Assembly: GCA_963709505.1 (NCBI GenBank)
Contig: CAVPXC010000029.1
Coordinates: 1,530-65,529, forward strand
Direction: 5' to 3'
Length of the DNA stretch: 64,000 bases
Source: an uncultured Chloroflexia bacterium
GTDB lineage: Bacteria > Chloroflexota > Anaerolineae > JAAEKA01
The notes under the pieces are model-generated. The model was not told the origin of the DNA, ran no database searches, and saw nothing but the letters and a program-made list of their open reading frames with translations. The stretch's first letter is position 1, and each line of letters begins with the position of its first letter. Both the position numbers and the translations under genes were made by a program. This document shows positions 1 to 20,522 of the stretch, one piece after another.

Positions 1-1137
1 ATTCTGTCCGATTTGGGCGTCAGCATCAACCCGAAGAGCCTGATGCTGGAGCTGAGCGTAGCCGAGCACCAGGTAATGGAGATTGCCCGAGCGCTGGTAG
101 CCGACGCGCGCGTGTTGATCTTCGACGAGCCGACTTCGGCGCTTTCGCCCGAGGAGGTGGATCACCTCTTTGCCCTGATCCGCCGATCTGCGCAACGAGG
201 GTGTGGCCATCGTCTACATCACGCACCGCTTGAACGAAGTACCTGAGATCGCCGACGAGGTGGTGGTGTTTCGGGACGGCAACCTGGTAGCCAGCGGTCC
301 TATCGCCGATTTCCCCCACGATCGAATTGTCGAGGCCATGACCGGAGAGGTCTATCAAGCGTTCGAGCACCACGACATCGCCAAGATCGAGGCCAGCGGC
401 CTCCGGCCGGCGCTCAAGGTGACGGCGGCTTCCATGCCACCTCTGTTCGAAGACGTCACCCTGGAGGTTTACAAGGGCGAAATCATCGGTCTGTTTGGCC
501 GTCTTGGCTGCGGCGCACTGGAGGTCGGCGAGGCCTTGTTTGGCTTGCGCCCCCTGACCGGCGGCACGATCACGATTATGGACCGGGACGGCCAGCCCAA
601 AGGGCCTGCACAGGCCAAAAAACGCGGGCTGGGGTTCGTGCCCGTGGACCGCAAGAAGCAGGGACTGTTGTCGACGCTGTCTGTATCGGAAAACCTGACG
701 GTTGCCTCGTGGAGCAGCCTGGCCTCCGCGGTCGGTTTTCTACGCCGCAGCGTGGTGGCTAAGCGTTACACTTCTGGAAGGACAAGCTGTCCATCCGTGC
801 GACCGGCGGCAGCAACCAGAATATCGACACGCTTTCCGGCGGCAATCAGCAGAAGGTGGTGTTGGGCCGTTGGCTCGAGAACAACAGCTCCGTGCTGGTG
901 CTGGCCGAGCCGACTCGCGGTGTGGACGTCGGTGCGCGCGCCGAGATCTACGAGGTGCTGGACAAGCTGGCCGACGAAGGCATCGCCATTTTGATTATCT
1001 CTACCGACGCCGAGGAGGTGCTGCGCATTTCCGACCGCATCGTCGTCATGTCGGACGGCCGGGTGACTGACGTCATTCCGCGGGAAGAGGCGTCGATGGC
1101 GCGGCTGACGGCATCGTCGGCTGCTGTTGCCGTTTAG
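1..1137 (+). CDS. Sugar ABC transporter ATP-binding protein (RbsA/MglA-type tandem ATPase); 5' part outside window, two apparent frameshifts
   Basis: ORFs 13-246, 203-994 and 856-1137 join into one protein: LSVAEHQVMEIARAL..LIFDEPTSALS, IVYITHRLNEV, GFVPVDRKKQGL, (T)LSGGNQQKVVLGRWL..LAEPTRGVDVGARAEIY. Confidence 0.9.
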
Positions 1138-1257
1138 AGCTGTTCAGGGATTGGAAATCCTCACTGACGGAAGTGGCCTCACCACTCGGAAGCGCCTTCC
1201 CTTCCGGACTGGTCGACTTTCCGCTCAGCGTGACTGCGAATTCTGGAGGTGATTGCC

Positions 1258-2313
1258 GTGAGCAATTCGATTATCGACGTCAGCCATGGGTTCTTCGACG
1301 AGCACGTCAAGCCGATTCTGGCCGCCGGCTTTCCCGAGGAGTTTGCTGCCATGGCCTTTGGAGTCTGGGGACTGGGCTCCGAAGCGCTGAAGATGGACGA
1401 CGAGTTTTCTCGCGACCATCACTGGGGGCTGCGGATCGACGCCATCATGCCGCTGGAACTGCTGCAAGCGCGTTGGCCGGCGATCCAGGAAGCCCTGGAG
1501 GCCAGGTTGCCGCATTCCTATCAGGGACATGCGCTCGGCGAGCGGGCGGTGGTCGGCGCCGGCATCACACCCGACTCGTTGCGCGGCCTGCTTTCCCGCA
1601 CGATCGGCATCGACCATCCGCCGCAGACCTTCGAGGAATGGCTGGCGATTCCCGAAGAGGATATCACCCACGTGATCAACGGCGAGGTGTGGCACGATCC
1701 ATCGGGACGCTTCAGCGCGGTGCGTGACACGCTCAAGGGGTACTACCCGGAGCCGGTGCGGCTGCGCCGGCTTGCCCATTGGTGCCGCTACTACTCCGGC
1801 ATGGGCACGTACGCGCTCAAACGCGCCAACCTGCGGCACAACCAATACTTCGCATCAGTTGCGTTCGGCCGGGCTATCCGCTTGGGAATGCAGATGGCTT
1901 TCATGCTGGACAAGCAGTACTACCCGTACGACAAGTGGACGATGGCCTATTTTCGGCATCTTCCAAGAATGTACGGCCGGCTTGGCTCGATCGTCGACGA
2001 AGCCGTCGACATCGCCACAGGCTGGGAACGCAAGCTGGACCTGCTCGACGCGCTTTCCGACGTTCTCGACCAGACAATGGTAGAGGACGGCATTATCCCG
2101 CCCCATCCCACGTTTGTCGGATCGCCCACATCCGGTTATCGCCTGATGGAGTTCGCCTATTGGGAGATCATCCGCAAGCTGCCGGCGGATCTTCTGGCGA
2201 TTATCCCGCAGTGGGAACAGGTCTATTTGGAGAAGTCTGTGGTGGCCTATGTGGCCACGCTGGATGGTCCGAGTTGGACTGCGGCGCTCAATTTGACGCC
2301 GGTGGATGAGTAG
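1258..2313 (+). CDS. DUF4037 domain protein (nucleotidyltransferase-like fold), paralog 1
   Basis: GLGSE..MDDEFSRDHHWG, EWLAIPEE..HVINGEVWHD, YYPEPVRLRRLA, YYPYDKW; GTG start chosen by alignment with the paralog (MSNSIIDVS vs MRESIIDVS), GGAGG RBS upstream. Confidence 0.8.
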   Translation: MSNSIIDVSHGFFDEHVKPILAAGFPEEFAAMAFGVWGLGSEALKMDDEFSRDHHWGLRIDAIMPLELLQARWPAIQEALEARLPHSYQGHALGERAVVGAGITPDSLRGLLSRTIGIDHPPQTFEEWLAIPEEDITHVINGEVWHDPSGRFSAVRDTLKGYYPEPVRLRRLAHWCRYYSGMGTYALKRANLRHNQYFASVAFGRAIRLGMQMAFMLDKQYYPYDKWTMAYFRHLPRMYGRLGSIVDEAVDIATGWERKLDLLDALSDVLDQTMVEDGIIPPHPTFVGSPTSGYRLMEFAYWEIIRKLPADLLAIIPQWEQVYLEKSVVAYVATLDGPSWTAALNLTPVDE

Positions 2314-2318
2314 ATAGA

Positions 2319-2351
2319 ATATCACAACGAATGCAGACAACGAATACCGGA
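2319..2351. repeat. Half copy of the ATATCACAACGAAT..GACAACGAAT..CGGA palindromic repeat family
   Basis: Matches the right arm of the palindrome at 40073-40147; lies just after a stop codon. Confidence 0.75.
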
Positions 2352-2468: not shown

Positions 2469-3449
2469 ATGAATTCTAAAGAACGTGTTTTGGCTTGTAT
2501 CAATCGCCAGCCCATCGACCGGACGCCGCTCGACTGTTGGTTGTACCAGCGGCAATTCGTCGACAATCTCGAGGCCGAGTATGGACCGCGGGATAAGTTC
2601 CTTGACGAGTTCGGTATCGACATCTTCGTGGGCTGGACGCCGTACCCAAACCAGTTTGGGCGGAAATTCGATATCAAGGAATTAGCCGGGTTGACCTTGG
2701 AGGATGCGCGCGATCCGAAATGGATCGGGTACAGCGATTGGAACCCGGATTTTGCAGGCGCCAACGTCGTCGACGCCGTGGCGCAGCAAGGCGATCGGCG
2801 AGCGATTATCGCGCACATGTGGGGCCTGGTCGAAGGAACCAGCTCTTTCCTCGGCATCGAAAAATGCTGGGCCAACCTGCGGCGCAACCCCGACTTGATG
2901 CATGCCTGGTTTGACCGCTACGCCGATTGGCTGTGCAGCCTGGCCGACAGCTGCATCGACGCGGGCGCCGACATCGTGCAGATGTCCGACGACTGGGGCA
3001 GTAACCAGACCATGCTGTTCCGCCCCGAGATGTGGCGCGAGCTGATCCGGCCCTACGCCGAGCGTGTGATCAAGCATATCCGCAGCCGGGGCGTGCCGAT
3101 GAACCAGCACAGCGACGGCTATATCATGCCGATCATGGACGACCTGGTGGAGATGGGAATCAGCATGTTGCACCCGGTCCAGGAAAGCGCCGGCATGGAT
3201 CCGCAGCAGGTCAAGGCGCTGTACGGTGACAAGCTCGTGATCTATGGATCGCTGGACACGGTGGACGCTCTGCTGTTGGAGGATGAAGCGGCGTTGGCCG
3301 AGTACATCCGTGGCCGCTTCGAGGTGTACGCGCCCGGCGGCGGCTACATCTTCAACACCGGCCACTTCGTACAGCCTGACACGCCGCCGCAGCGGCTCAT
3401 TCGTGCGTATAAGTTGGCTTACGACTTGGCGGGCACATATGCCACATGA
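2469..3449 (+). CDS. Uroporphyrinogen decarboxylase / MtaA-CmuA methyltransferase family protein
   Basis: MNSKERV..DRTP start, SDDWGSNQTMLFRPEMWR, HSDG, LHPVQESAGMDP, PGGGYIFNTGH. Confidence 0.85.
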   Translation: MNSKERVLACINRQPIDRTPLDCWLYQRQFVDNLEAEYGPRDKFLDEFGIDIFVGWTPYPNQFGRKFDIKELAGLTLEDARDPKWIGYSDWNPDFAGANVVDAVAQQGDRRAIIAHMWGLVEGTSSFLGIEKCWANLRRNPDLMHAWFDRYADWLCSLADSCIDAGADIVQMSDDWGSNQTMLFRPEMWRELIRPYAERVIKHIRSRGVPMNQHSDGYIMPIMDDLVEMGISMLHPVQESAGMDPQQVKALYGDKLVIYGSLDTVDALLLEDEAALAEYIRGRFEVYAPGGGYIFNTGHFVQPDTPPQRLIRAYKLAYDLAGTYAT

Positions 3450-3594: not shown

Positions 3595-3630
3595 TGAAGT
3601 GCGACTTACGTGATATCTTGGAGGCAACCG

Positions 3631-4917
3631 ATGAACTCGCGCGAACGATTTCTCGAGGTCATGAACTTCAACACCAATGTCCGCTCGATGAAGTGGGAAT
3701 TCGGCTTCTGGGGTGAAAATATCACCCAGTGGTATCAGGAAGGACTGCCCAAGAAGTACGGAACCAACATCCCCACCAATCTGACGACCGTCGCCGCGTC
3801 GCTGTATACCACCGCTTGGACCCACGAGTGGCGCAAACACCGCACCTATCTGGAGAAGTTCTACGGCGAGCCGGAGCAGGAGATCCCTCTGCCGCCCGGC
3901 ATCGCAATCTGGGGCGGCGCGCTTTATTGGCCCAGCCAGGGTTTTCCACTCGCGTTGGACGTGATGGATTATTTTGGTTTCGACAAGAGCACGGCGCTGG
4001 TCCGCGTTGAGCAGCTTTTCCAGCCCTATTTCGAGCCGCATATCCTGGACGAGGACGAGCGCTATTTGAACTACGTCGACATCGACGGGGTCAAGCGCAC
4101 GTTTCAGAAGGACGAAGGCGTCATCCCTAGCTCCCACGAATGGCCGATCAAGGATTGGGCCACCTGGCTGCAGATCAAAGAGGAGCGCCTGCGGCTCGAC
4201 ACCATCCGCGATCGCTTTCCCGCCAATTGGGACTGGTGGATCCAGGAGTACAAGAACCGGGACTACCCGCTGGCCGTCGGCGGCTATCCGTGCGGGTTCT
4301 TTGGGACGCTGGTGCACCTGATCGGCTACCAGAACGTCTTCTACAAATACTATGACGAGCCCGACCTGCTGAAGGACATCCTCGGGCACCTCACGACGCT
4401 GTGGATTTCGATCTGGGAGGAGATCCTTGCCGACGTCGAAATCGATTGCTGCCACATCTGGGAAGACATGTCCTCGACCATGGGCGTGATGATCTCGCCG
4501 GCGCACTTCGCCGAGTTTATGGCGCCGTGCTATCGCCGGATCAGCGATTTTCTCAAAGGCCATGGCGTCAACATCCTGCTGGTCGACACCGACGGCAACA
4601 TCGAGCAGTTGATCCCTCAATTCCTCGAAGCCGGCGTAACCGGGATGTATCCGATGGAGACGTCCGCCGGCATGGACGTGATGAAGCTGCGCAAGCAGTA
4701 TCCGCGCTTCCAGATGATGGGTGGCGTGCCAAAATACGATATGGCGCTGGGACCAGCACGCATCGAGGAGTTTTTGCAGCCGGTGAACGAGCTGCTCAAA
4801 TACGGCGGCTACGTGCCCACCGGCGATCACTGCATCTCGCCCGGCGTATCGTGGGAGAACTTCAAGTACTACCGCCGTCGCTTGAACGAGATCATCGACG
4901 CCAACGGAGCGATGTAA
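3631..4917 (+). CDS. URO-D / MtaA-CmuA family protein (WEDM / VDTDG subtype)
   Basis: MNSRERF, HIWEDMSSTMGVMISPAHFAEF, LVDTDGN, YPMETSAGMD, GGYVPTGDH; GGAGG RBS at 3620-3624. Confidence 0.85.
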   Translation: MNSRERFLEVMNFNTNVRSMKWEFGFWGENITQWYQEGLPKKYGTNIPTNLTTVAASLYTTAWTHEWRKHRTYLEKFYGEPEQEIPLPPGIAIWGGALYWPSQGFPLALDVMDYFGFDKSTALVRVEQLFQPYFEPHILDEDERYLNYVDIDGVKRTFQKDEGVIPSSHEWPIKDWATWLQIKEERLRLDTIRDRFPANWDWWIQEYKNRDYPLAVGGYPCGFFGTLVHLIGYQNVFYKYYDEPDLLKDILGHLTTLWISIWEEILADVEIDCCHIWEDMSSTMGVMISPAHFAEFMAPCYRRISDFLKGHGVNILLVDTDGNIEQLIPQFLEAGVTGMYPMETSAGMDVMKLRKQYPRFQMMGGVPKYDMALGPARIEEFLQPVNELLKYGGYVPTGDHCISPGVSWENFKYYRRRLNEIIDANGAM

Positions 4918-4918
4918 C

Positions 4919-5983
4919 ATGCGCGAGTCCATCATCGACGTCAGCCGGAGCTTCTTCTTCGAGGTCGTGAAGCCGATTCTGGAGCGCAGCTTCCCCGAGG
5001 AAACCGCTCAAACGACTTTCGGCGTGTTCGGCTATGGCTCCGAGGTGCTGCGGCTGGACGACGAGTACTCGGCCGACCACCACTGGGGGCTGCGCATCAA
5101 CGCGCTTATGCCGGAAGCGTTGTTTGAAGAGCGGTCCCCAGCTATCCTGCGCGTCGTCGAAGCGGAGATGCCCGATACGTATCGGGGCCACAACCTCCGC
5201 GAGGGGTTGTCAGGTGGCAAGGGTTTGTCGCTCACCAGCATGGAAGGCTATCTGCGCCGCACGATCGGGTTGACCAAGGTACCAAAGACCTACCGCGAGT
5301 GGCTCAGCGTTCCCGAGGAGGATATCACCCACGTCATCAACGGCGAGATCTGGCTGGACGAGACCGGCCAGTTCTCGGCGATTCGCGAGGCGTTTCTTGG
5401 GTACTACCCGGAGCCTGTGCGGCTGCGGCGCATGGCCCACTGGTGTCGCTACTATTCCGGCATGGGCAGCTATGCCCTCAAGCGTGCGCTGCTGCGCTAC
5501 AACGAGTGGTACGCCGCCGTCGCGTTTGCGCGGGCCATCCGTCTGGGCGTGCAACTGGCGTTTCTGTTGGACAAACAGTATTGCCCGTACGACAAGTGGA
5601 CCATGGCCTTTTTCGCCAAGCTGCCGCGCATGTATTTCCCGCTGGCGCCGATTGTCAATGAGGCGGTGAGCCTGGCAACGCCATGGTCGCGCAAACTGGA
5701 GCTGTTGAATGAAATGGCCGACGTGCTCGACCAGACCATGGTGGAAGACGGCCTGGTCCCGCCGCATCCGCCGTACACCCATTCGCCGACCTCCGGCTAC
5801 CGTCTGTTGGAGCACGACTACGCCGCAATTCTCAGAAGCCTGCCTCCGGAGATTCGGCCGATCGTTCCGGTCTGGGACCAACTCTACATGGAGGAGTTTC
5901 ATAGCGGCTACGTCGCATCGTTGGATTTGGACACCTGGGATAGCTTACTCAACCTGACACCCGAAAAAGAGGAAGGTTCATGA
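4919..5983 (+). CDS. DUF4037 domain protein, paralog 2
   Basis: GYGSE..LDDEYSADHHWG, YYPEPVRLRRMAHWCRYYSGMG; colinear with 1258-2313; starts 1 nt after the upstream stop and overlaps the next start (ATGA). Confidence 0.8.
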   Translation: MRESIIDVSRSFFFEVVKPILERSFPEETAQTTFGVFGYGSEVLRLDDEYSADHHWGLRINALMPEALFEERSPAILRVVEAEMPDTYRGHNLREGLSGGKGLSLTSMEGYLRRTIGLTKVPKTYREWLSVPEEDITHVINGEIWLDETGQFSAIREAFLGYYPEPVRLRRMAHWCRYYSGMGSYALKRALLRYNEWYAAVAFARAIRLGVQLAFLLDKQYCPYDKWTMAFFAKLPRMYFPLAPIVNEAVSLATPWSRKLELLNEMADVLDQTMVEDGLVPPHPPYTHSPTSGYRLLEHDYAAILRSLPPEIRPIVPVWDQLYMEEFHSGYVASLDLDTWDSLLNLTPEKEEGS

Positions 5984-6961
5984 ATTCAAAAGAGCGTGTA
6001 TTGGCGACCTGCCACCGAACGCCGGTGGATCGCACTCCCCTGGATTGTTGGCTATATCAACGGCAGTTCGTCGAAAAGCTGGAGGCGGAATACGGCAGCC
6101 GGGATCAGTTCCTGGACGAGTTTGGCATCGACATCTTTCTCGGCTGGACGCCCTATTCCAACCAGTTTGGGCAGAAATTCGACATCAAGGAGCTGGCTGG
6201 TTTAGCTCTGGAAGACCCGCGAAGTCGCAAGTGGATCGCCTATGATGCCTGGAACCCTGACTTTGCCGGCTTGGGCGTTGCCCAGGCCGTGGAGCAGCAA
6301 GGCGACCGCCGGGCGATCATTGCCCACTTCTGGGGGATCGTCGAAGGCACCAGCACCTTTCTGGGCATCGAGAAGTGCTGGGCCAACCTGCGCCGCAACC
6401 CTGACCTGATGCGAGCCTGGTTCGATCGCTTCGCCGACTGGCTGTGCGGTCTGTCTGATAGCTGCATCGACGCCGGCGCCGACATCATGCAGATGTCCGA
6501 CGACTGGGGCAGCAACCAGACCATGCTCTTCCGGCCGGAGATGTGGCGCGACCTGATCAAGCCCTACGCCGGCCGGGTGATCAGCCATATCCGCAGCCGG
6601 GGTGTGCCGGTCAGCCTGCACAGCGACGGCTATATCATGCCGATCCTCGACGACCTGGTGGAGATGGGCGTCAGCATGCTGCATCCGGTTCAGGAGAGTG
6701 CGGGCATGGATCCTCAGGCAATCAAAGCGGGCTATGGCGACAAACTCGTCGTCTACGGCTCGCTGGACACGGTGGATGCCTTGCTGCTGCAGGAGGACGC
6801 AGCCCTGGCCGACTACATCGCCGGCCGTTTCGCCACCTACGCGCCAGGCGGCGGAATTCATCTTTAATACCGGCCACATGGTGCAGCCCGATACGCCGCC
6901 GCAACGGCTGGTCGGCGCTTATCGGCTGGCTAGCGAACTGGCGAGAACGTACGGAACATGA
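5980..6961 (+). CDS. URO-D / MtaA-CmuA family protein, close paralog of 2469-3449; frameshift near 6850
   Basis: Very similar to 2469-3449 over its length; the C-terminus FIFNTGHMVQPDTPPQRL continues in ORF 6602-6961. Confidence 0.85.
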
Positions 6962-9314: not shown

Positions 9315-9368
9315 ACCAGGTGAGCGAGATCACGCAAGACTGAGCAACTTCGCTCAGTCTGTGTTGAA

Positions 9369-10945: not shown

Positions 10946-10965
10946 GTCCCAAAACGGAGAATCGC

Positions 10966-12364: not shown

Positions 12365-12395
12365 CCCGGATTATCAAGAGTTGTAACGACAAATC

Positions 12396-12734
12396 ATGCC
12401 AACCTATCAAATATTGTACTGGTACGACATTCCAACGCAGGTTCGTGTCCGAGAGGGCCGCGAGCGAGTGAGTAAGCCGCTGTCACCGCGTTTCATGGAG
12501 GCGGTGGACGCGGCTGCCATGCGCGCGCGCCTGACCAGCGCCGACGACTATCCCAAGGGCTTCAAGTGGAGCGAAGGCCAGCAGCGCGACGGTTCACCCG
12601 AGGCAGTGGTCAATTCGGTCGTGGCAGAGCTCGAAGCCCACTACGAGACGATCGAGTGGCGCCAACTGGCCGACCGGCTGCGAGCCGAGAAACGCCAAAC
12701 CCTCCCGGACACCCCGCAGGAAGGAGCCGAGTAG
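12396..12734 (+). CDS. Small Virulence_fact (PF13769)-like protein
   Basis: YWYDIPTQV..LSPRFMEAVDAAAM..DDY..W pattern; 1 nt from the RACo start. Confidence 0.7.
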   Translation: MPTYQILYWYDIPTQVRVREGRERVSKPLSPRFMEAVDAAAMRARLTSADDYPKGFKWSEGQQRDGSPEAVVNSVVAELEAHYETIEWRQLADRLRAEKRQTLPDTPQEGAE

Positions 12735-12735
12735 C

Positions 12736-14820
12736 ATGCAGAGCAACGGCTCCAAGGAGGCGGTCCAGCCGCTGGTGATCTTCATGCCCGCCGGGCGACG
12801 CGCGCACGTCGATCCCGGCACATCTCTGCTCGACGCTGCCCGCCAGATGGGTGTCGGCATCGAGAGCATTTGCGGTGGCCGCTTAACCTGCGCCAAGTGC
12901 AAGGTGCGCGTCGAGGAAGGCGCGTTTCAGAAGCACGGCATCGAGTCGGGCGCTACCCACCTCTCCGCCCCGTCGACCGACGAGCAGGCGCTGATCGAGG
13001 AGGATGGCGATCTCGACTGCCGCATGTCTTGTTCGGCGCGCGTCTATGGCGATGTATTGGTCTTCGTCCCCGAGGAGAGCCGGGCGCAAAAGCAGGTCGT
13101 GCGCAAATCGGCCACCGAGCGCTTAATCGACGTCGCCCCGGCCGTACGCGAGGTCTACGTCGAGGTCGACGAAGCACAACTCGGCGAGCACCGCGGCGAC
13201 TGGGGCCGGCTTCAGGATGCGCTGGCACAGCAATGGGATTTGACCCAACTTGGTATCGATCTGAGCGCACTGCAGAAACTCCAGCCAACGTTGCGCAAGG
13301 GACACTGGAAGGTCACGGCCACCGTCTGGCAAGGAGATGACCGGGCAGAGGTGCTCGACGTCCACCCTGGCTACCACGATGGCGTTTACGGAATGGCCGT
13401 GGACATCGGCAGCACGACCGTGGCCGCGTATCTGTGTAACCTCCGCACAGGCGAATTGCTGGCCACAGAATCGGCCATGAACCCGCAGGTCGTTTACGGC
13501 GAAGATCTGATGAGCCGCATCTCGTACGCCATGGTCCACAAAGATGGGCTCGAACGGATGCACACGGCCATCATCGACACGCTGAACAAGCTCGCTGCCA
13601 AGGCGACGCGCAGCGTCGGCCTGCGGCCGCGCGACATCCACGAGGCGGTGTTCGTCGGGAACACGACGATGATCCACATTCTGCTGGGCATCGACCCACT
13701 CGAGCTCGGCGGCGCGCCCTTTGCCCTGGCCAATCGCGACAGCATGGACCTCAAAGCGCGCGATCTCGGCCTGCGCCTGCATCCGGCAGCCAACGTCCAC
13801 ATCATGCCGGCCGAGGCCGGCCACGTGGGCGCGGATAACGTCGGCGTGCTGCTGGCCGAGCCGCCGTATTTGCATGACGAGATCACGCTGACGGTGGACG
13901 TGGGCACCAATGCCGAGATCGTGCTTGGCAACCGGGAGTGGATGTACAGCGCCTCCAGCCCGACCGGACCTGCCTTCGAGGGCGCACAGATTACCTACGG
14001 CATGCGTGCAGCCCCAGGCGCGATCGAGCGCGTGCGCATCGATCCGATCACGCTGGCCGCGCGCTTCAAGGTCATCGCCGAGGAGCGATGGTCTGACGAA
14101 TGGCAAAGCGGGCCGGGTGTGCCACTGGACGACCAGCCGAAGCAGCTCGCGACCGGCATCTGCGGCTCCGGCATCATCGAGGTGATTGCAGAGATGTTGC
14201 TGCAGGGCGTGATCCTGCCCGATGGCCGCTTCAACCCGGATCTGACGAGCGATCGCGTTTATCAAAGTGACGGCTCGGGTTCGTCCAAAACAGGCAGCAA
14301 GGGCGCCTATCTATTGGCCACCGGCGAGCAGACCAGCACCGGCGAGCCGATTCTGGTGACATTGGAGGACATCCGCAACATTCAGCTTGCGAAGGCCGCG
14401 CTGTACGCGGGCGCTAAGCTGCTCATGAACCGCGCAGGCGTCAAGACGGTCGACCGCGTTCTATTGGCCGGTGCGTTCGGCAGCTACATCGACCCCGTGT
14501 ACGCCATGGTGCTTGGGCTGGTTCCCGACTGTGATTTGAGCAAGGTGGCAGCGGTTGGCAACGCCGCAGGCGACGGCGCGCGCATCGCCCTGCTGAACCG
14601 GCAGAAGCGCGCCGAGGCCCAGCAGATCGCACACCAGGTTCGCTACGTCGAGACCGCGGTCGACCCGGATTTCCAGGTCGAGTACGTTGCCGCCATCCGC
14701 ATGCCGCACGCCAGCGACCCCTTCCCGCACCTCGACGGCTTGTTACCGGACCGCGAGACCGCTGCGCCGGCCCCCAAGCCCGTCATCCGCAGCCGCCCGC
14801 GGCGGATGGTGGAGGCGTAG
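12736..14820 (+). CDS. Reductive activator of corrinoid proteins (RACo/RamA-like; ASKHA ATPase with N-terminal 2Fe-2S ferredoxin)
   Basis: ICGGRLTCAKC..C, AVDIGSTT, NPQVVYGEDLMSRI, DVGTNAEIV, TGPAFEGAQI, GICGSG, LAGAFGSY, VGNAAGDGA. Confidence 0.93.
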   Translation: MQSNGSKEAVQPLVIFMPAGRRAHVDPGTSLLDAARQMGVGIESICGGRLTCAKCKVRVEEGAFQKHGIESGATHLSAPSTDEQALIEEDGDLDCRMSCSARVYGDVLVFVPEESRAQKQVVRKSATERLIDVAPAVREVYVEVDEAQLGEHRGDWGRLQDALAQQWDLTQLGIDLSALQKLQPTLRKGHWKVTATVWQGDDRAEVLDVHPGYHDGVYGMAVDIGSTTVAAYLCNLRTGELLATESAMNPQVVYGEDLMSRISYAMVHKDGLERMHTAIIDTLNKLAAKATRSVGLRPRDIHEAVFVGNTTMIHILLGIDPLELGGAPFALANRDSMDLKARDLGLRLHPAANVHIMPAEAGHVGADNVGVLLAEPPYLHDEITLTVDVGTNAEIVLGNREWMYSASSPTGPAFEGAQITYGMRAAPGAIERVRIDPITLAARFKVIAEERWSDEWQSGPGVPLDDQPKQLATGICGSGIIEVIAEMLLQGVILPDGRFNPDLTSDRVYQSDGSGSSKTGSKGAYLLATGEQTSTGEPILVTLEDIRNIQLAKAALYAGAKLLMNRAGVKTVDRVLLAGAFGSYIDPVYAMVLGLVPDCDLSKVAAVGNAAGDGARIALLNRQKRAEAQQIAHQVRYVETAVDPDFQVEYVAAIRMPHASDPFPHLDGLLPDRETAAPAPKPVIRSRPRRMVEA

Positions 14821-14941
14821 GGGCGGGCCTTGCGCCCGCCCGCATGACGTACCATCGTAGGGGCGGGCCTTGCGTCCGCCCGCTTGCGTCCGCCCCGGAC
14901 GACGTGCGAAACCAGAGGGCGGACGCAAGGCCCGCCCCTAC
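14817..14941. repeat. GTAG-type REP cluster (two direct copies, one inverted); supplies the RACo stop codon
   Basis: GTAGGGGCGGGCCTTGCG(C/T)CCGCCC twice, then GGGCGGACGCAAGGCCCGCCCCTAC. Confidence 0.8.
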
Positions 14942-14980
14942 GACAGTTTGGCGTTATATGAAACGGAATGGTAGAACGAT

Positions 14981-15493
14981 ATGAGCATTGGAACGTGGTT
15001 GCGTGATCGTCCCGCCCTCCTCGAAATAGTGTACGATGCCACGCACACACTGTTTACGGCGATGGATCCGCTGATCCAACGCATCGGCTACGAGCGCACC
15101 GATCAGCTGATTCGCGGGCCGGAGGAGTTCGGCAAGAAGGTGGTGTTTGATTGTCGCATGTGCGGCCAGTGCATCCTCCACTCGACGGGCATGACGTGTC
15201 CGATGAGCTGTCCCAAGAACCTGCGCAATGGCCCCTGCGGCGGCGTGCGCGCCAACGGGCACTGCGAGGTGAAACCGGAAATGCGCTGCGTTTGGGTCGA
15301 GGCCTACGAGCGTTCCCAGCGTATGCCGATGTTCGGCAACGAGATTCTGTGGATCGAGCCACCGGTAAACCGCCAGCTCGAAGGCACCTCGGCCTGGGTG
15401 AACATGCTCACCGGCGTGGACACCGAGGTTCCGAAGGCGTGGCAGGGTATCAATACAGTGCCGAATGTGCCGGGCGCGCCGGAAAAGAAGTAG
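14981..15493 (+). CDS. metV: Methylene-THF reductase C-terminal-domain protein (MetV-like, Cys-rich)
   Basis: FDCRMCGQC..GMTCPMSCPKNLRNGPCGG..GHCEV..CVW. Confidence 0.85.
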   Translation: MSIGTWLRDRPALLEIVYDATHTLFTAMDPLIQRIGYERTDQLIRGPEEFGKKVVFDCRMCGQCILHSTGMTCPMSCPKNLRNGPCGGVRANGHCEVKPEMRCVWVEAYERSQRMPMFGNEILWIEPPVNRQLEGTSAWVNMLTGVDTEVPKAWQGINTVPNVPGAPEKK

Positions 15494-15577
15494 ATATCAC
15501 AACGAATGGCGGAGGGCGGACGGCAGACGGTGGTCAGCAGTCAGCCGTCAGAAGTCAGCGGTCAGCGAATAGGAACT

Positions 15578-16633
15578 ATGGAAACAACCAACACATCACT
15601 GGAGTTTTCAGCAGGTAGCCGGCTGGAGCGGGTATTGCGCTCGGGTCGATTTGCGGTTACGGCCGAGCTCAACCCACCCGACAGCGCCAACCCGCAGGAT
15701 GTGTACGATGCGGCTTTGGTGTTGTCGGAGGTATGTGACGCCATCAATGCCACCGATGCCTCCGGCGCGCACTGCCATATGTCGAGCGTAGCGATTTGCG
15801 CTTTGTTGACGCGCGCCGGCTATGAGCCGGTGTACCAGATTTCGTGCCGCGACCGCAACCGCATTGCGATCCAGGGCGACCTGCTGGGCGCGGCGGCGAT
15901 GGGCGTCAAGAACGTGCTGTGTCTGACGGGCGACGACGTAACTGCCGGCGACCAGCCGCAGGCTAAGCGTGTGTTTGATCTGGACTCGACACAGCTGCTG
16001 TTTACGGCTAAGATCATGCGCGACCACGGCATGTTTTTGAGCGGCCGCAAGCTCACGACTCCTCCCCGCGTGTTCCTGGGCGCAGCCGAGAACCCCTTCG
16101 TGCCGCCGTTCGACTGGCGTCCGCTGCGCCTGGCCAAGAAGATAGAAGCCGGCGCACAGTTCATCCAAACTCAATATTGCTTTGATGTGCCCAGGTTTCA
16201 GCAATTCATGGCGCGTGTACGGGACCTGGGGCTGGACGAGCGGGTCTACATCCTGGTCGGCGTTGGGCCGCTGCGCTCGGACAAGGCGGCCGAATACATG
16301 CGCAAGAACGTGCCGGGTGTCCACATCCCGGACGAAATCGTTGAGCGGCTGCGCCAAACGCCCAAGGAAAAGAAGCTGGCCGAGGGCAAGCGCATCTGTG
16401 TCGAAATCATCCAGCAAGTCAAGGAAATCGCGGGCGTGGCCGGCGTACACGTTATGGCCTATCGGCAAGAAGAGTTGGTGGCGGAGATCATCGAAGAGTC
16501 CGGGCTGCTGCCTCGACCCCTGCAGCCATCTTCAGCCGCCCGAGAAGCTTATTTGCGCGCACGGCGCCACGCCCATGACCATACCCCATCCGATGGGTCG
16601 CAACCCCAAAACCCGTGGAGAATCCAACCATGA
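15578..16633 (+). CDS. metF: 5,10-methylenetetrahydrofolate reductase
   Basis: TAELNPP, NATD, QISCRDRNRIAIQGDLLGA, LTGD, KKIEAGAQFIQTQYCFD. Confidence 0.92.
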   Translation: METTNTSLEFSAGSRLERVLRSGRFAVTAELNPPDSANPQDVYDAALVLSEVCDAINATDASGAHCHMSSVAICALLTRAGYEPVYQISCRDRNRIAIQGDLLGAAAMGVKNVLCLTGDDVTAGDQPQAKRVFDLDSTQLLFTAKIMRDHGMFLSGRKLTTPPRVFLGAAENPFVPPFDWRPLRLAKKIEAGAQFIQTQYCFDVPRFQQFMARVRDLGLDERVYILVGVGPLRSDKAAEYMRKNVPGVHIPDEIVERLRQTPKEKKLAEGKRICVEIIQQVKEIAGVAGVHVMAYRQEELVAEIIEESGLLPRPLQPSSAAREAYLRARRHAHDHTPSDGSQPQNPWRIQP

Positions 16634-17598
16634 CACTAGAAACGATCGTCTCATCCCCGTCGAAAACCGTTGTGATCGGCCCAGGCAGGCCGTTTGTCAT
16701 CATCGGCGAGCGGATCAATCCGACCGGCCGCAAGAAGCTGGCCGCCGAAATGCAGGCGGGTGACTTTAGCCGCGTTCGCGCTGACGCCATCGCCCAAGTT
16801 GCCGCCGGCGCGCACATTCTCGACGTCAACGCCGGCCTCGGCGTAGCCAACCCCCACGAGGTTGAGCCGGAAGTTCTGACCGAGGCCATCCGCATCGTGC
16901 AGGAAGTGGTCGACGTGCCGATCTCGATCAATTCGTCGGTCGTTCCGGCCCTCAAGGCCGGCCTGAAGGCCGCTTGGGGCAAGCCTATTGTCAACTCGGT
17001 GACCGGCGAGGAGGAGCGGATGGAGGTGGTGTTCCCGCTCGTGGCCGAGCGCGGGGCGGTGGTTATCGCCATCTCCAACGACGAGAGCGGTATCTCCTAC
17101 GATCCAAGGGTGCGTTTCGAGGTCGCTAAACGAATCGTCAAGCGCGCGGCCACCTACGGCATTCCACCCGAGAATATCCTGATCGATCCGCTGGCGATGC
17201 CCGCCGGCGCGGTACCCGGAGCCGGCAAGCAGATCTTTGACATCGTGCGCTGGATCCGCGAGGAACTGGGCTGCAATTGCACCTGTGGCGCGTCCAATAT
17301 CTCCTTTGGCCTGCCCAACCGGGCGGCGGTCAACGCCAGCTTTGTCGCCATGGCCATCGCCGCGGGCATGACCTGCGCGATTACCAACCCGCTGGAGCAG
17401 GAGATCATGACCGGCATCCGCGCGGCGGACCTGCTGATGGGCCAGGACGAGAACTGTACGGCCTGGATCATGATGCAGCGCCAGCTGCAAAAGGCTGCCG
17501 CACAAGCGGCGGCCTTGGCCGCTGGCGAGACGGCTACGCCGGCCGAGACGGGCGAGCGCCGCTCGCGCCGGGATCGGGTTTCGTCTGGTGGGGCTTAA
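16630..17598 (+). CDS. Methyl-THF:corrinoid methyltransferase (AcsE-like pterin-binding domain)
   Basis: IIGERINPTGRKKL, AGAHILDVNAG, IVNSVTGE, LIDPL, GASNISFGLPNR; ATGA overlap with metF. Confidence 0.88.
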   Translation: MTLETIVSSPSKTVVIGPGRPFVIIGERINPTGRKKLAAEMQAGDFSRVRADAIAQVAAGAHILDVNAGLGVANPHEVEPEVLTEAIRIVQEVVDVPISINSSVVPALKAGLKAAWGKPIVNSVTGEEERMEVVFPLVAERGAVVIAISNDESGISYDPRVRFEVAKRIVKRAATYGIPPENILIDPLAMPAGAVPGAGKQIFDIVRWIREELGCNCTCGASNISFGLPNRAAVNASFVAMAIAAGMTCAITNPLEQEIMTGIRAADLLMGQDENCTAWIMMQRQLQKAAAQAAALAAGETATPAETGERRSRRDRVSSGGA

Positions 17599-17604
17599 TA
17601 GTGG

Positions 17605-17704
17605 AGACCCTTTGGGTTTCTCTACGCTGGATTCGTTGTCCTGGCACCAACGATTATCGGCCCAGTGACGAAACCTGATTTGTAGCGAGAAACCCAAAGG
17701 GTCT
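17605..17704. repeat. Intergenic element with 18-bp terminal inverted repeats
   Basis: AGACCCTTTGGGTTTCTC (17605-17622) and GAGAAACCCAAAGGGTCT (17687-17704). Confidence 0.8.
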
Positions 17705-17717
17705 GGTAGGAGCATCC

Positions 17718-19002
17718 ATGCGATTTCACCTGCTTCATCCTCGCGACCAGCTCGTCGCGATCATGAATCGCATTTACAACAACGGCATGACCACCCTGTC
17801 GGGCGGCAACTTGTCGATTCTCGACGCTAACGGCGACATCTGGATCACGCCCGCCGGCGTCGACAAGGGCAAGCTGACGCCGCAGGACATCGTGTGCGTA
17901 CACGCCGATGGCACGGTCGACGGCCTGCACCGGCCGTCGTCTGAGCTCCCCTTCCATCGAGCGATCTACCGCTGCCGGCCGGATCTGCGGGCCATTGTGC
18001 ACGCACATGCGCCCGCGTTGGTGTCGTTTAGCATCGTTCGTCAGGATTCCGAATGCATATATCATTCCGCAGGCGCAGCGCGTTTGCGGGCTGGTGGGCT
18101 ATGCCCCCTATGCCTTACCCGGCAGTGAGCAGCTTGGCGAAGCCATCGCCGATACTTTCGCCGACGGCTACAACGTCGTGCTGCTGGAGAACCACGGCAT
18201 TGCTGCGGGGGCAGGCGATCTGCTGACCGCGTTTCAGCGGCTGGAGACTCTGGACTTCTGTGCGCGCACGGAGCTGAAGGCGCACGCGCTTGGGCCGATC
18301 AATACGCTTACCGAGGCGCAGCTGTTGCCCTTCGATGCCCAACACAACCTGCTGCCCGAGTTCGCGTCGGGTTGGCATTCCAGCCGCGAGCGGGAGCTGA
18401 GGCAGGAAATGGTGGAGATCGTTCGGCGGGCCTGCGAGCGCTATCTGATGATCAGCACAGAGGGCGTCGTTTCCGCGCGCCTCGACGAGCACAGCTTTTT
18501 GATCACGCCTACGGGACTGGATCGAGGCAATCTGGAGATCGAGGACATTGTCTTAATCCAGGATGGCCAACGCGAGCGTGACAAACTACCCAGCCGTTCC
18601 GTGCGGCTGCACGCTGCGATCTACGAGATGCATCCGGACGTCAACTGCGTGATAACAGCCCAGTCGCCCAATATCTTAGCCTACGCGATCACGCATGGCC
18701 GCTTTGACACGCGCACGATCCCGGAGAGCTACATTTTGCTGCGCGATGTGCCGATGATACCGTATGGCGCGCAGTTCAAAGAGCCGCAACGCGTAGCCGA
18801 AGCGCTTTGCGATCGCTCGCCCGTGCTGTTGATCCAAAACGACGCCGTGCTGACGACCGGGCGCACCATCCTGCAGGCTTTCGACCGTCTCGAAGTAGTC
18901 GAGTTCAGCGCCCGTGCGCTGATCGACACCGCACTGCTAGGCCCGCATGTTCCGATCGGCGATGTGCAGCTGGCCAATTTGATCGAGGCGTTCTTGTCCT
19001 GA
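17718..19002 (+). CDS. Class II aldolase/adducin family protein with two tandem domains; frameshift near 18045
   Basis: [27 protein letters not shown] in domain 1; [21 protein letters not shown] in the degenerate domain 2. Confidence 0.85.
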
Positions 19003-19050
19003 GACCCGCCATACCGCGGGGCGGTATTGGCGAATTCAGAAACCCGATCG

Positions 19051-19136
19051 TGTCACTGGCGCTGCGCCGTGAGGTCCGCCGAAGCATCCCCCGTTTACAT
19101 CCATGCCGAGATGCTTCGGCGGACTTCAGCATGACA
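19051..19136. repeat. TGTCA..TGACA-bounded palindromic repeat
   Basis: TGAGGTCCGCCGAAGCATC (19070-19088) pairs with GATGCTTCGGCGGACTTCA (19110-19128). Confidence 0.7.
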
Positions 19137-19238
19137 TAACTGAGCAAGTTTCTGAGTAGAACCGCGGACTGGCGGAGGCGCGGACTAGAGCGGAGACGGA
19201 GCCGAACTGCTCGAGTCTTCAGATGTTTGGAGAAACCC

Positions 19239-20522
19239 ATGGTCAACCAATCAACACCCACGGAAAAACAAATCGAAAGCACTTACGAACTGGCGCGTGA
19301 GCATTATGCCCTTCTAGGCGTGGACACCGACAAGGCTTTGGAGCGCTTGTCAAGCATCGCCATCAGCCTGCATTGCTGGCAGGGCGACGACGTGGGCGGC
19401 TTCGAGGCCCCTGGCGGCGAGCTAGGCGGCGGCCTGGCCGCCACCGGCAACTACCCGGGCAAGGCCCGCACCGCCGATGAGCTGCGCCAGGACCTCGACA
19501 CCACTTACGGCCTGATCCCCGGCAAGCATCGCCTGAATCTGCATGCTATCTACGCTGAAACCGGCGGCAAGCCGGTCGAGCGCACCCAGCTACGGCCGGA
19601 GCACTTCAGCCGCTGGGTGGACTGGGCCAAGGCTAACGGCCACGGCCTCGACTTCAACCCGACCTGCTTCTCGCATCCACTGGCCGCCAGCGGCTTTACG
19701 CTGGCAAGCTACGACCAGGGCATCCGTCATTTCTGGATCGAACACTGCATCGCCAGCCGTAAGATCGGCGAGAGCTTTGGGCGGGCGCTCGGCACGCCGT
19801 GCGTGACTAACGTCTGGATCCCGGACGGGCTCAAGGATACTCCGGTGGACCGCAAGACGCCGCGCGAGCTGCTGAAGCGGTCGCTGGATGCGGTTTTCGC
19901 CGAGAAAATCGACCCGCGCGCAAATCTGGACGCGGTGGAGGGCAAGCTCTTCGGGTTGGGCTCCGAGGCCTACGTGGTGGGCTCGCACGAGTTCTACCTG
20001 GGCTATGCCATCACACATGACGTGCTACTGACGCTGGATAGCGGCCATTTTCACCCCACGGAGACGATCGCCGATAAGCTGTCGGCGGTGTTGATGTACG
20101 TCGACGAAGTGCTGCTGCACGTCAGCCGCGGTGTGCGCTGGGACAGCGACCACGTCGTGATCCTGTCCGACGAGTTGCAGTCGATCATGCAGGAGCTCGT
20201 GCGCGGGGATTACCTGGGCCGCGTGCACATTGGACTGGACTATTTTGATGCCAGCATCAACCGTGTGGCCGCCTGGGCCGTGGGCACGCGCAACGCGCTG
20301 CGGGCTCTACTCATCGCGCTGTTGGAGCCGATCGACTCGATGCGGGCGCTCGAGGTCGCGGGCGACTATACCTCGCGCCTGGCCCTGCTTGAGGAGCTCA
20401 AAGGCCTGCCCTTCGGTGCGGTGTGGGACTATCACTGCCTGAAGCAGCATGTGCCGATCGGAATGGCTTTTATGAACGAAATCAAGGCTTATGAGGCGGC
20501 TGTGCTTTCAAAGCGCGGTTAG
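19239..20522 (+). CDS. rhaA: L-rhamnose isomerase
   Basis: [90 protein letters not shown]. Confidence 0.96.

Follow-up and report, generated by a model that had tools for sequence, protein, structure and literature searches.

A rhamnose gene cluster with MtaA-like methyltransferases and cobalamin recycling points to a candidate O2-independent demethylation of methylated sugars

What do MtaA-like methyltransferases and a cobalamin-recycling module do among genes for the use of rhamnose? This question is raised by a cluster in the 64,000-nucleotide stretch of DNA analyzed here (the window). Methyl ethers on sugars hinder glycosidases and catabolic enzymes, and the sole sugar O-demethylase found in our literature search is an O2-dependent P450 acting on 6-O-methyl-D-galactose, from which the methyl carbon leaves as formaldehyde. 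To our knowledge, no corrinoid enzyme acting on a carbohydrate methyl ether has been characterized, and the literature search found no precedent for corrinoid-dependent sugar O-demethylation. The sequence evidence described below points to a candidate O2-independent demethylation of methylated sugars.

The gene content of the cluster was confirmed by profile searches with Pfam and NCBIfam, with every gene on the + strand: a monosaccharide-type ABC importer, two DUF4037 genes, five URO-D/MtaA-like genes (U1 to U5), GH78, a PF13769 protein, RACo, MetV, MetF, a pterin-binding methyltransferase, aldolases, and RhaA. These results bear out the inventory of the first-pass annotation, which had listed ABC uptake genes, GH78, URO-D/MtaA, RACo, a THF methyltransferase, MetV/MetF, and rhaA on one strand. 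The window starts with the C-terminal pieces of an RbsA/XylG-type double ABC ATPase (1..1095; profile match 203-994), and the contig upstream contains a BPD_transp_2 permease and the missing half of the ATPase, indicating an importer of the ribose/xylose type (CUT2). The binding protein of the importer was not seen because the contig begins at the importer genes. A GH78 α-L-rhamnosidase gene was identified at 6989..9314 (PF08531 and PF17389; domains 6989-7837 and 7725-9314), followed downstream by a class II aldolase-family gene (17700..19002, profile match 17908-19002) and the gene for L-rhamnose isomerase, RhaA (19227..20522; PF06134, 679 bits), which scored above the cut-offs of both equivalog models (NF002203, 688 versus 572 bits; TIGR01748, 671 versus 585 bits). 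Co-oriented sugar genes extend past 20,522 to about 29.5 kb, including a RhaE-like class II aldolase (20883..21636), a conserved 450-aa protein without an assigned role that is possibly PHP-like and lies downstream of the aldolase in relatives (21657..23006), a long Zn-ADH-like gene (23245..25042), an SDR similar to the dehydrogenase half of RhaEW (25138..25938), and a second long ADH-like gene with CoA-transferase subunits A and B (26034..29499), where the co-oriented block ends. Neither RhaM nor a recognizable kinase was found in the window.

The two DUF4037 genes (PF13228) are located at 1249..2313 (copy a, 93 bits) and 4919..5983 (copy b), and their products are 60% identical in alignment. 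Copy b is a predicted nucleotidyltransferase with a helical domain, and its structure model (pLDDT 87) matched ANT(4') (Z 12.0) and LinB (Z 10.2). DUF4037 is a conserved partner of U1 and has no part in the route proposed below.

Comparison with intact orthologs revealed that at least six genes of the cluster are interrupted. At least four frame pieces make up the ABC ATPase, as determined by tblastn of the intact ortholog from locus L048, and the final 34 residues of U3 lie in a different frame near position 6856. Both the N-terminal and the six-hairpin catalytic domain of GH78 were found, but a frame change across a repeat-bearing insert (7714-7845) separates them when compared with the 707-aa ortholog of L068. 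Frameshifts were also located at about 18044 in the class II aldolase-family gene and at about 21520 in the RhaE-like aldolase, where the break fuses the aldolase and the downstream gene into a false 709-aa ORF, and the first long ADH gene has two breaks, giving three frame pieces, and a palindromic insert (23838-23916). A single base at 6852 is missing from related metagenome contigs, so the break in U3 is either an assembly error or true decay; with several sugar genes interrupted, this strain may be losing the pathway.

All five URO-D/MtaA-like genes matched PF01208. U1 (2469..3449; 105 bits) has an H-S-D-G...H motif and NCBIfam matches of the MtaA/CmuA type that fall under cut-off, and U3 (5980..6958, profile match 5980-6867) is its duplicate with 81% identity. 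N-terminal extensions occur in U2 (3610..4917; D-T-D-G...H) and U4 (9611..10945; H-T-D-G...H), and U5 (10966..12069) is the member conserved in rhamnose operons. Counting the recent duplicates U1 and U3 as one leaves four distinct URO-D types, so that the five position-specific demethylases envisaged in the first-pass annotation are too many. Against the HemE model TIGR01464 (cut-off 302.95 bits), U1 and U3 scored 55 and 26 bits, and U2, U4, and U5 gave no match at E ≤0.001. The NCBIfam matches of U5 were of the MtaA/CmuA type, with none to HemE, and remained under the equivalog cut-offs of MtaA and MtbA (48.4 versus 400 and 35.8 versus 600 bits). The family as a whole is very large, comprising 9429 clusters at 50% identity (E ≤0.001).

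The structure model of U5 (pLDDT 97.4) had MtaA as its top structural match (E 5.5e-16, TM 0.71/0.76, 22% identity), followed by UroD, and the only PDB entries matched by its sequence were those of MtaA (4AY7/4AY8). Residues H255, D257, and H341 of U5 align with the H-x-C...C ligands of MtaA, with Cys substituted at both positions. Orthologs of U5 were collected from 79 loci, of which the 56 with at least 57% identity were counted and the 23 weaker ones dropped; His-x-Asp...His is kept in 54 of the 56, and the remaining two are gapped there. Position 257 is occupied by Asp in 48 of 77 family representatives and by Cys in the other 29, an alternation that coincides with the MtaA ligand position. 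According to a preprint, UroD-superfamily O-methyltransferases carry carboxylates in place of Cys ligands (PMC10418091), and U5 follows the rule given there, namely retention of His and replacement of at least one Cys by a carboxylate or a non-coordinating residue. The predicted metal site of U5 thus fits O-methyl rather than S-methyl substrates. Additionally, conservation at the strand ends of U5 mostly involves charged or polar residues (D207, D213, D214, Q218, R229, K233, Q279, and Q307).

A one-carbon module follows U5. It begins with a small PF13769 protein (12396..12734), a partner that usually precedes this RACo and does so in four other loci (L049, L128, L129, and L130). The RACo-type corrinoid reductive activator (2Fe-2S and ASKHA; 12736..14820) has all four domains (PF14574 with 307 bits, PF17651, PF17650, and PF00111) and scored 433 bits against the AcsV model, under the cut-off of 800. 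The genes for a MetV-like small subunit (14981..15493; PF12225, 96.6 bits), the methylene-THF reductase MetF (15506..16633; PF02219, 122 bits), and a pterin-binding methyl-THF:corrinoid methyltransferase of the MT II/AcsE-like type (16615..17598; PF00809; NF005719, 340.9 bits versus a cut-off of 259) complete it. The window encodes three of the parts expected of a corrinoid-dependent O-demethylase system: an MT I of the URO-D/MtaA-CmuA fold, a pterin-binding MT II, and a RACo/RamA-type activator. This module is a second copy in the genome, a more distant set of RACo, methyltransferase (MeTr), and MetF being located on contig C22.

The fourth part, a corrinoid protein (B12-binding_2 and B12-binding domains, DxHxxG) encoded with MT I, was found neither in the window nor elsewhere on its 333-kb contig; Pfam gave no match to a B12-binding protein, and tblastn gave noise only (E ≥0.27). 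The host genome has four corrinoid proteins elsewhere, two of which are located in other sugar clusters alongside URO-D genes, so that the absence of such a protein from the genome, named by the first-pass annotation as grounds for rejecting its proposal, did not materialize. On contig C7 of the host, an in-frame fusion joins a corrinoid domain to the N-terminus of a URO-D protein. Among relatives, a canonical corrinoid protein (GDxHDIGKN motif) was identified in 8 of the 56 U5 loci, which are scattered over at least five U5 sublineages; it adjoins U5 in L051, L079, and L068 and lies within the operon in L056. It is also located directly upstream of U2 orthologs in three of five loci, and members of the U5, U2, and U4 clades directly adjoin canonical corrinoid proteins in relatives. 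No corrinoid protein was found in the fetched flanks of the other 48 U5 loci, nor in 24 of the 30 loci having at least 5 kb on both sides. All five further genomes with a U5 ortholog and no local corrinoid protein encode a small corrinoid protein and RACo elsewhere.

The orthologs of U5 are linked to rhamnose genes. RhaM was found in 37 of the 56 loci, in 29 of them no more than 400 nt from U5 and on its strand, and RhaA and a RhaE-like aldolase were found in 18 and 17 loci, respectively. Thirteen loci were read with Pfam, and their usual operon consists of a CUT2 ABC importer, RhaM, U5, an isomerase (RhaA or a xylose-isomerase-like one), a kinase, and a class II aldolase. As these operons already have mutarotase, isomerase, kinase, and aldolase, they leave no missing step for U5; in L056 and L074, where no glycosidase was found among the ORFs read (about 6.5 kb on each side of U5), the rhamnose pathway is complete without it. 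Other contexts are varied: L061 has a fucosidase and sulfatases, in P0392 U5 is joined to a sulfatase, and L079 has a GDSL esterase. Two loci (L068 and L105) share the U1/U2/U4/U5/GH78/RhaA set and add two corrinoid proteins and RACo. U5 orthologs occur in Chloroflexota and in MAGs labelled Planctomycetota, Bacteroidota, and Acidobacteriota, and in the host genome 15 of 19 URO-D matches are located in sugar clusters, other paralogs being accompanied by fucose isomerase and sugar kinases. These results indicate that the tie between URO-D paralogs and deoxy-sugar catabolism, first noted in the window, holds far outside it. The designation of the pathway as anaerobic was not borne out, as one holder is labelled Herpetosiphon.

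The link between sugar genes and the one-carbon module, which the first-pass annotation expected to be conserved, is rare in relatives. RACo was found in two of the 56 U5 loci by tblastn and in one more (L068) by Pfam; the THF methyltransferase was found in one, and no locus yielded MetV or MetF. Orthologs of the window RACo normally occur with PF13769 and a corrinoid protein, apart from sugar genes, and no sugar genes were found near ten of them. GH78 was found in 4 of the 56 U5 loci. Co-occurrence at the genome level is hardly informative: RACo is encoded by 121 of 151 genomes of the class, as well as by 24 of 151 from another phylum, in which U5 was found in the seed genome only.

From these observations on gene content, synteny, family, fold, and conserved residues, we infer a substrate, a series of chemical steps, and a choice of corrinoid protein. 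The sugar would be taken up by the ABC importer and released from glycosides by GH78. A URO-D protein would then bind the sugar and polarize the methyl ether at the His/Asp/His metal site, and the methyl group would be accepted by Co(I) of a corrinoid protein, presumably supplied in trans from among the four copies elsewhere in the genome, just as the one-carbon module would often act in trans in relatives. The pterin-binding methyltransferase (16615-17598) would transfer the methyl group to THF, MetVF would oxidize methyl-THF, and RACo with PF13769 would re-reduce inactivated corrinoid, while the freed rhamnose would pass through mutarotase, RhaA, kinase, and aldolase. We give about an even chance to the reading that U1 to U5 are the MT I of a corrinoid-dependent demethylase for O-methylated 6-deoxyhexoses, with O-methyl-L-rhamnose as the most likely substrate of U5. 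With a confidence just short of even, we extend it to U5-type proteins at large as widespread corrinoid-dependent demethylases of carbohydrate methyl ethers, which would share corrinoid proteins and convert O-methyl-rhamnose or related methylated deoxy-sugars to free sugar and methyl-THF, while U1, U2, and U4 with the nucleotidyltransferase-like DUF4037 would cover other positions or sugars.

Alternatively, the URO-D proteins could be ordinary O-demethylases of aryl methyl ethers: GH78 would free rhamnose from the rhamnosides of methoxylated flavonoids or lignans, the methoxy groups of the aglycone would be demethylated, and only rhamnose would reach RhaA. The characterized MT I of this fold named in the CdmB paper all use aromatic methyl ethers or methyl halides (PMC13222342), GH78 enzymes described in one report accept flavonoid rhamnosides (PMC8132073), and GH78 accompanies U1, U2, and U4 in L068 and L105, for which proteins this reading may hold. 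As a general explanation it is very doubtful, since U5 adjoins RhaM in 29 of 56 loci within operons with monosaccharide-type importers, GH78 is present in four loci and no glycosidase in the ORFs read at L056 and L074, other host paralogs accompany fucose isomerase and sugar kinases, and the strand-end residues of U5 are mostly charged or polar.

It is unlikely, too, that U5 and its paralogs work without corrinoid, using the URO-D barrel and the His/Asp/His site for another step of deoxy-sugar metabolism, with the one-carbon module adjacent by chance. The 48 loci without a corrinoid protein in their flanks, the usual separation of the RACo/MeTr module from sugar genes, a U5 fold that fits MtaA just slightly better than metal-free UroD, and NCBIfam scores that are all far under family cut-offs are consistent with that idea; the corrinoid proteins that adjoin orthologs of U5, U2, or U4 in several independent sublineages, the in-frame fusion to a family member, the operons that leave no step for U5, and the Asp/Cys alternation exactly at the MtaA ligand position argue against it. 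A corrinoid-dependent enzyme could also have a different donor, such as another small methylated compound imported or released with deoxy-sugars, or a methylated sugar acid or aminosugar derivative. The substrate cannot be read from sequence, and the differing contexts (L061, P0392, and L079) and the 9429 family clusters leave room for such donors, yet we regard this as quite unlikely, because the tight, recurrent order of RhaM, U5, and RhaA or RhaI argues for rhamnose or a close analogue as the product and the carboxylate at the ligand position speaks against S-methyl donors, going by the site descriptions of the preprint (PMC10418091).

If demethylation of O-methylated deoxy-sugars is the true function, it would be the first O2-independent sugar O-demethylation and would widen ether cleavage by Co(I) from aromatic to aliphatic sugar ethers. 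It would also explain the bacterial use of methylated deoxy-sugars derived from glycans of algae, plants, and bacteria in sediments, sludge, and other low-oxygen habitats, with the sugar methyl group feeding C1 metabolism. In addition, part of a huge family annotated only as "uroporphyrinogen decarboxylase family protein" would gain a function, and the enzymes could serve as new ether-cleaving biocatalysts.

The closest known systems are compared by fold and context. O-demethylases of acetogens and methoxydotrophic archaea (OdmB, VdmB, MtvB, and MtoB) likewise have an MT I of URO-D-like fold, a pterin-binding MT II, a RACo-type activator, and MetF, and relatives of the window share with them the DxHxxG corrinoid protein beside MT I, which the window cluster lacks. 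The partners here are sugar importers, RhaM, RhaA, and aldolases instead of aromatic-compound genes, and the proposed leaving group would be a sugar alkoxide rather than a phenolate. The methylcobamide:coenzyme M methyltransferases MtaA and MtbA (4AY7/4AY8) have the barrel and the metal-ligand positions in common with U5, whereas their His-x-Cys...Cys is His-x-Asp...His in U5, which occurs in a context without coenzyme M metabolism. The chloromethane dehalogenase CdmBCA of Acetobacterium dehalogenans includes, besides an MT I of URO-D fold, an MT II and a separate corrinoid protein, as proposed here; its CdmB cavity is described as hydrophobic and metal-free (PMC13222342), in contrast to the many charged residues and the His/Asp/His triad of U5, and its structure was not among the Foldseek matches of U5 (PDB to 8 April 2026). 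With the canonical phosphorylated L-rhamnose pathway (RhaM, RhaA/RhaI, kinase, and RhaD/RhaE), as outlined in a survey (PMC3870299), the window shares RhaA, a RhaE-like aldolase, and an SDR, and its relatives add RhaM and kinase; the words methyltransferase, decarboxylase, and corrinoid do not occur in that survey. The P450 of marine bacteria that demethylates 6-O-methyl-D-galactose would have the same role as proposed here, clearing a methyl ether that blocks sugar catabolism, although it is described as oxidative and O2-requiring (PMC6292453) and is unrelated in fold and chemistry, whereas the system proposed here would keep the methyl group as methyl-THF.

The window (G000:C29:1530-65529) belongs to a genome of 4.97 Mb in 35 contigs with 81% completeness. 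Its close homologs bear names that assign it to Chloroflexota, within Caldilineae or Anaerolineae. Every callable gene from the contig start to approximately position 29,500 of the window lies on the + strand. This block starts with a BPD_transp_2 permease and an RbsA/XylG-type double ATPase, followed by DUF4037a, U1, U2, DUF4037b, U3, GH78, U4, and U5 (10966-12069), where U1-U5 denote the URO-D/MtaA-like genes. Next to U5 are genes encoding PF13769, the corrinoid-protein reactivator RACo, MetV, MetF, and a pterin-binding methyltransferase (MeTr, 16615-17598), and then a class II aldolase, rhamnose isomerase (RhaA), a RhaE-like aldolase, and a 450-aa protein. The block ends with a long ADH, an SDR, a second long ADH, and CoA-transferase subunits A and B, before a type I restriction-modification system. 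Therefore, the genes named in the first-pass annotation for 1..20522 were correctly identified, although both DUF4037 genes, PF13769, and the sugar genes making up the block's downstream half were missing from that list. U1 and U3 shared 81% identity and DUF4037a and DUF4037b shared 60%, and these sequence similarities point to a tandem duplication of the DUF4037-U1 unit. No recognisable rhamnulokinase was found in the cluster of the window, and promoter and terminator scans of 9000-21000 yielded nothing above shuffled sequence, leaving the operon limits undefined by them.

Comparison with intact orthologs indicated that several genes of the block are broken. The ABC ATPase was divided into at least four frame pieces, the final 34 residues of U3 were shifted to a different frame near 6856, and GH78 switched frame over an insert at 7714-7845. 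Further breaks were found in two aldolase genes (at 18044 and, in the RhaE-like one, at 21520) and, twice, in a long ADH; a second RACo on another contig (C5) was likewise spread over three frames. The inserts were not homopolymer slips; one contained a short direct repeat and one a G/C-rich palindrome. Public sequencing runs contained relatives only, accounting for at most 0.22 of sampled words, and contigs of these relatives had one base fewer at 6852 and skipped or replaced 7718-7887. The breaks may reflect either assembly error or decay, the one-base difference at 6852 being the only frameshift on which these runs bear. The G/C-rich palindrome at 23838-23916 within the long ADH and the repeat-bearing insert at 7714-7845 within GH78 may be small mobile repeat elements. 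A 709-aa ORF at 20883-23012 was considered as a RhaEW-type fusion and rejected, being a frameshifted aldolase merged with the separate 450-aa gene.

Beyond the block, the restriction-modification system (29678-35359) was complete (HsdR, HsdM, and HsdS) and was followed by Schlafen/AlbA_2, NYN, DUF3024, and HNH domain genes with lower G+C (~0.50-0.55). On the - strand, a 1207-aa protein with zinc ribbon, adenylate cyclase, AAA, and TPR domains (41318-44941) and very large RTX-repeat (HemolysinCabind) proteins (53213-63999) were encoded, one of the latter exceeding 2037 aa and continuing past the window end.

Among NCBIfam models, U1-U5 were nearest to MtaA/CmuA-type models, all far below the cut-offs, and weak HemE hits came from U1 and U3 alone. 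MtaA was the sole hit of U5 in a PDB sequence search, and the AlphaFold model of U5 (77 sequences, pLDDT 97.4) matched MtaA best (E 5.5e-16), followed by UroD (E 2.8e-14). The H-I-C-G and P-G-C-G motifs of MtaA aligned to H255-T-D257-G and P-A-H341-I of U5, and the aligned H-x-C...C residues of MtaA are presumably zinc ligands. A preprint (PMC10418091) attributes a His-Cys-Cys zinc site to the S-methyltransferases of the UroD superfamily, and a carboxylate in place of one or both Cys to its O-methyltransferases, a statement on which our ligand assignment draws. H255, D257, and H341 were kept in 54 of the 56 U5 orthologs, the remaining two being shortened sequences. Across 77 family representatives, position 257 was Asp in 48 and Cys in 29, while H255 was kept in 76 and H341 in 70. 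The motif H-[ST]-D-G...H was common to U1, U3, and U4, and U2 had D-T-D-G...H. The predicted metal-site pattern described here fits the O-type. Other near-invariant residues of U5 (D207, D213, D214, Q218, R229, K233, Q279, and Q307) were placed by the model at or just past the C-terminal ends of the barrel strands, and this polar or charged set is as would be expected of a sugar-binding pocket. A URO-D paralog elsewhere in the genome (C2:13987-15000; L012 3949-5112), flanked by a FucI-like gene and a long ADH, retained an H-I-C-G...G-C pattern like that of MtaA and matched Pfam over its full length (220 bits); it is a possible member of the S-type or MT2-type group.

U5 belongs to a large family, with 4420 homologs at E ≤1e-5 among 8000 candidates scored (the best 120 at 70-99% identity) and 9429 clusters at E ≤0.001 in a 50%-identity library. 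When 150 other genomes of the class were sampled, 8 contained a U5 ortholog (≥63% identity). Scanning GTDB species genomes yielded 79 loci, of which 56 with at least 57% identity were counted and 23 weaker ones dropped; 30 of the 56 had at least 5 kb on both sides. Rhamnose mutarotase (RhaM) was found in 37 of the 56 loci (21 of the 30), RhaA in 18 (9), RhaE-like aldolase in 17 (9), corrinoid protein in 8 (6), DUF4037 and U1 in 7 (6) each, U2 in 5 (4), and U4 and GH78 in 4 (2) each. In 29 of the 56 loci, including L109 with an odd overlapping hit, RhaM and U5 shared a strand and were no more than 400 nt apart. The common operon, defined by Pfam in 13 loci, comprised an importer (Peripla_BP_4, two BPD_transp_2, and a double ABC_tran), RhaM, U5, RhaA or a xylose-isomerase-like isomerase, an FGGY/PfkB kinase, and a class II aldolase. 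One locus (L056) had the order ABC-RhaM-U5-isomerase-corrinoid protein-AOR-aldolase-FGGY; since mutarotase, isomerase, kinase, and aldolase were all there, U5 and the corrinoid protein are additional to the pathway rather than an absent step of it. The same theme continued among more distant homologs: a Pirellulales locus combined a U5-like gene with RhaM and GH106, and L061 (described below) also contained RhaM and U5. The conserved unit is RhaM-U5 in rhamnose operons, with recurrent corrinoid-protein neighbours.

Four proteins were returned by a fusion search among longer U5 homologs, and none of them was a B12 fusion; likewise, no corrinoid-U5 fusion (~580 aa expected) was present among the best 120 of the 'near' length class. 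One of the four candidates, P0393 (U5 and RhaA), was rejected as a true fusion and regarded as a read-through of broken genes, because only partial pieces of both aligned. Another protein, P0392, consisted of a full U5 joined to a sulfatase, and a locus labelled Gemmatimonadaceae (L061 3660-13767) contained a GH29 fucosidase, two URO-D genes, a corrinoid protein, a sulfatase, RhaM, U5, and a second sulfatase. These two cases hint that the substrates might come from fucans or rhamnans that are both methylated and sulfated.

None of the 19 PF02310 matches of the genome was on the contig of the window, and searching the window by tblastn with the corrinoid proteins of the genome gave noise only. 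The first-pass annotation had named the absence of a corrinoid protein from the genome as a refuting result; four canonical ORFs with the GDxHDIGKN motif were found, on contigs C1, C2, C5, and C7. The copies on C1 and C2 were located within two further sugar clusters where URO-D genes are numerous, one with an FGGY kinase, DUF4432, LacI, RhaM, and fucose isomerase, and the other with PfkB and FGGY kinases, a FucI-like gene, and an SDR. Fifteen of the 19 URO-D hits of the genome were inside sugar clusters, with the remaining 4 in mixed contexts. On C7 (92032-93679; L015 6033-7716), a corrinoid domain continued without a frame break into the N-terminal part of a URO-D paralog (114 residues at 50% identity to C2_43191, E 1e-34), with the remainder of the barrel in another frame. 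This fusion links the corrinoid-protein and URO-D families.

An HMM built from these four corrinoid proteins identified 13 ORFs in 11 of the scanned loci, 8 of which were U5-ortholog loci, and the DxHxxG, SxL, and GG motifs were kept in all 12 aligned ORFs. The corrinoid protein was located between RhaM and U5 in L051, directly after U5 in L079, and directly before RhaM-U5 in L068. It was also immediately upstream of U2 orthologs in 3 of 5 cases (L068, L105, and L079); of the other two, L069 ends at a contig edge and L059 has none. A FastTree phylogeny was constructed from 135 family members (17 of 19 own paralogs and 118 of 158 locus HMM hits), leaving out two own fragments of <290 aa, short locus hits, and loci before L048. 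Corrinoid-adjacent members were distributed over at least five sublineages of the 60-member U5 clade (support 100), as well as the U2 and U4 clades. L068 and L105 had essentially the gene set of the window, to which they added RhaM and two corrinoid proteins; relative to these loci, the window was without the corrinoid genes upstream of U2 and U5 and without RhaM. L105 additionally harbored a full block of URO-D, corrinoid protein, MeTr, and RACo, and L068 a RACo-type gene and DUF1638, the latter (12407-13171) encoded between RhaA and the RACo-type gene.

Conserved linkage between sugar genes and the C1 module (RACo, MetV, MetF, and MeTr), whose absence the first-pass annotation had named as a refuting result, was not seen among relatives, where the module rarely accompanied sugar genes. 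RACo was found in 2 of the 56 U5 loci (1 of the 30 with ≥5 kb on both sides), MeTr in 1 (1), and MetV and MetF in 0 (0). The flanks (~9 kb per side) were read for ten RACo orthologs sharing 56-73% identity with the window's copy. PF13769 was upstream in 3, a corrinoid protein adjoining or nearby in 7, MeTr nearby in 2, and URO-D genes in 1, and none had MetV, MetF, or sugar genes in that range. Based on these counts, the usual unit is PF13769-RACo-corrinoid protein(-MeTr), and in the window MetV-MetF occupies the usual place of the corrinoid protein beside RACo. Contig C22 carried a second, more distant RACo/MeTr/MetF set; thus, the C1 module of the window is an extra copy. The module accompanied sugar genes in the window, L049, and L105, which is not a general rule, and it is an occasional add-on to RhaM-U5 operons. 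All 8 genomes of the class with a U5 ortholog contained RACo, but so did 121 of 151 genomes of the class overall, making this co-occurrence uninformative. Five further U5 holders in which no corrinoid protein was encoded nearby (labelled Bacteroidota, Pirellulales, Acidobacteriota, Terriglobia, and Pelolinea) all had a 211-251-aa corrinoid ORF and RACo, often adjacent. In a second phylum, that of one of these holders, 24 of 151 genomes contained RACo, and the seed genome alone contained U5 (n=1). These genome-level checks in the five holders and the second phylum provide mild support at best for the corrinoid link.

DUF4037 was paired with U1 in 7 of the 7 loci having U1, the pairing being seen in the window (1249-2313 and 4919-5983) and in L048, L050, L068, L069, L070, L102, and L105. 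A PDB sequence search with DUF4037 gave nothing significant, and its model resembled aminoglycoside and lincosamide nucleotidyltransferases acting on sugar hydroxyls (ANT(4'), Z 12.0; LinB, Z 10.2), with an invariant G-x-G-S-E...D-D motif. The 450-aa protein (21657-23006) is conserved, coming next after the RhaE-like aldolase in numerous rhamnose clusters, L048 and L051 among them. It had no Pfam family and nothing significant in a PDB sequence search, where a phosphoesterase matched weakly (E 0.094), and its Atlas neighbours were partly PHP-domain clusters (12-25% of members). The Zn-ADH-like proteins (23245-25042 and 26034-27791 in the window; C2:11975-13675) were unusually long (~570-590 aa), with GroES-like and Rossmann domains separated by a large insert, and recurred in rhamnose and URO-D clusters.

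In the route that we propose, a methylated deoxyhexose would be imported or freed by GH78 and bound by a URO-D protein, where the ether oxygen would be polarised at the His/Asp/His metal site and the methyl group taken by the Co(I) of a trans-acting corrinoid protein. MeTr would then move the methyl group to THF for oxidation by MetVF, RACo with PF13769 would repair oxidised corrinoid, and the freed rhamnose would enter RhaA. Only the parts list, synteny, and conserved residues were observed, and each of these reactions is inferred from them. Zinc-assisted cleavage of an aliphatic C-O bond is already carried out by methanol:corrinoid methyltransferases; therefore, the proposed sugar-ether chemistry is plausible. 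The interpretation given in the first-pass annotation gains partial support in a sharpened form, centred on RhaM-U5 in rhamnose operons with recurrent corrinoid neighbours and with the C1 module as an occasional addition. Taken together, we consider the chances that the URO-D cluster encodes sugar demethylases to be about even.

A full-text literature search, with subscription journals and supplements outside its scope, returned no paper on corrinoid-dependent sugar demethylation, including URO-D genes with rhamnose genes. A P450 acting on 6-O-methyl-D-galactose (PMC6292453) was the only sugar demethylase found, and the main text of a 2013 survey of rhamnose regulons contained no mention of methyltransferases, decarboxylases, or corrinoids in a word search. 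The structure of CdmB (PMC13222342) was absent from the structural matches of the U5 model. As described there, CdmB has a hydrophobic cavity, whereas the corresponding pocket of U5 would be lined by polar or charged conserved residues.
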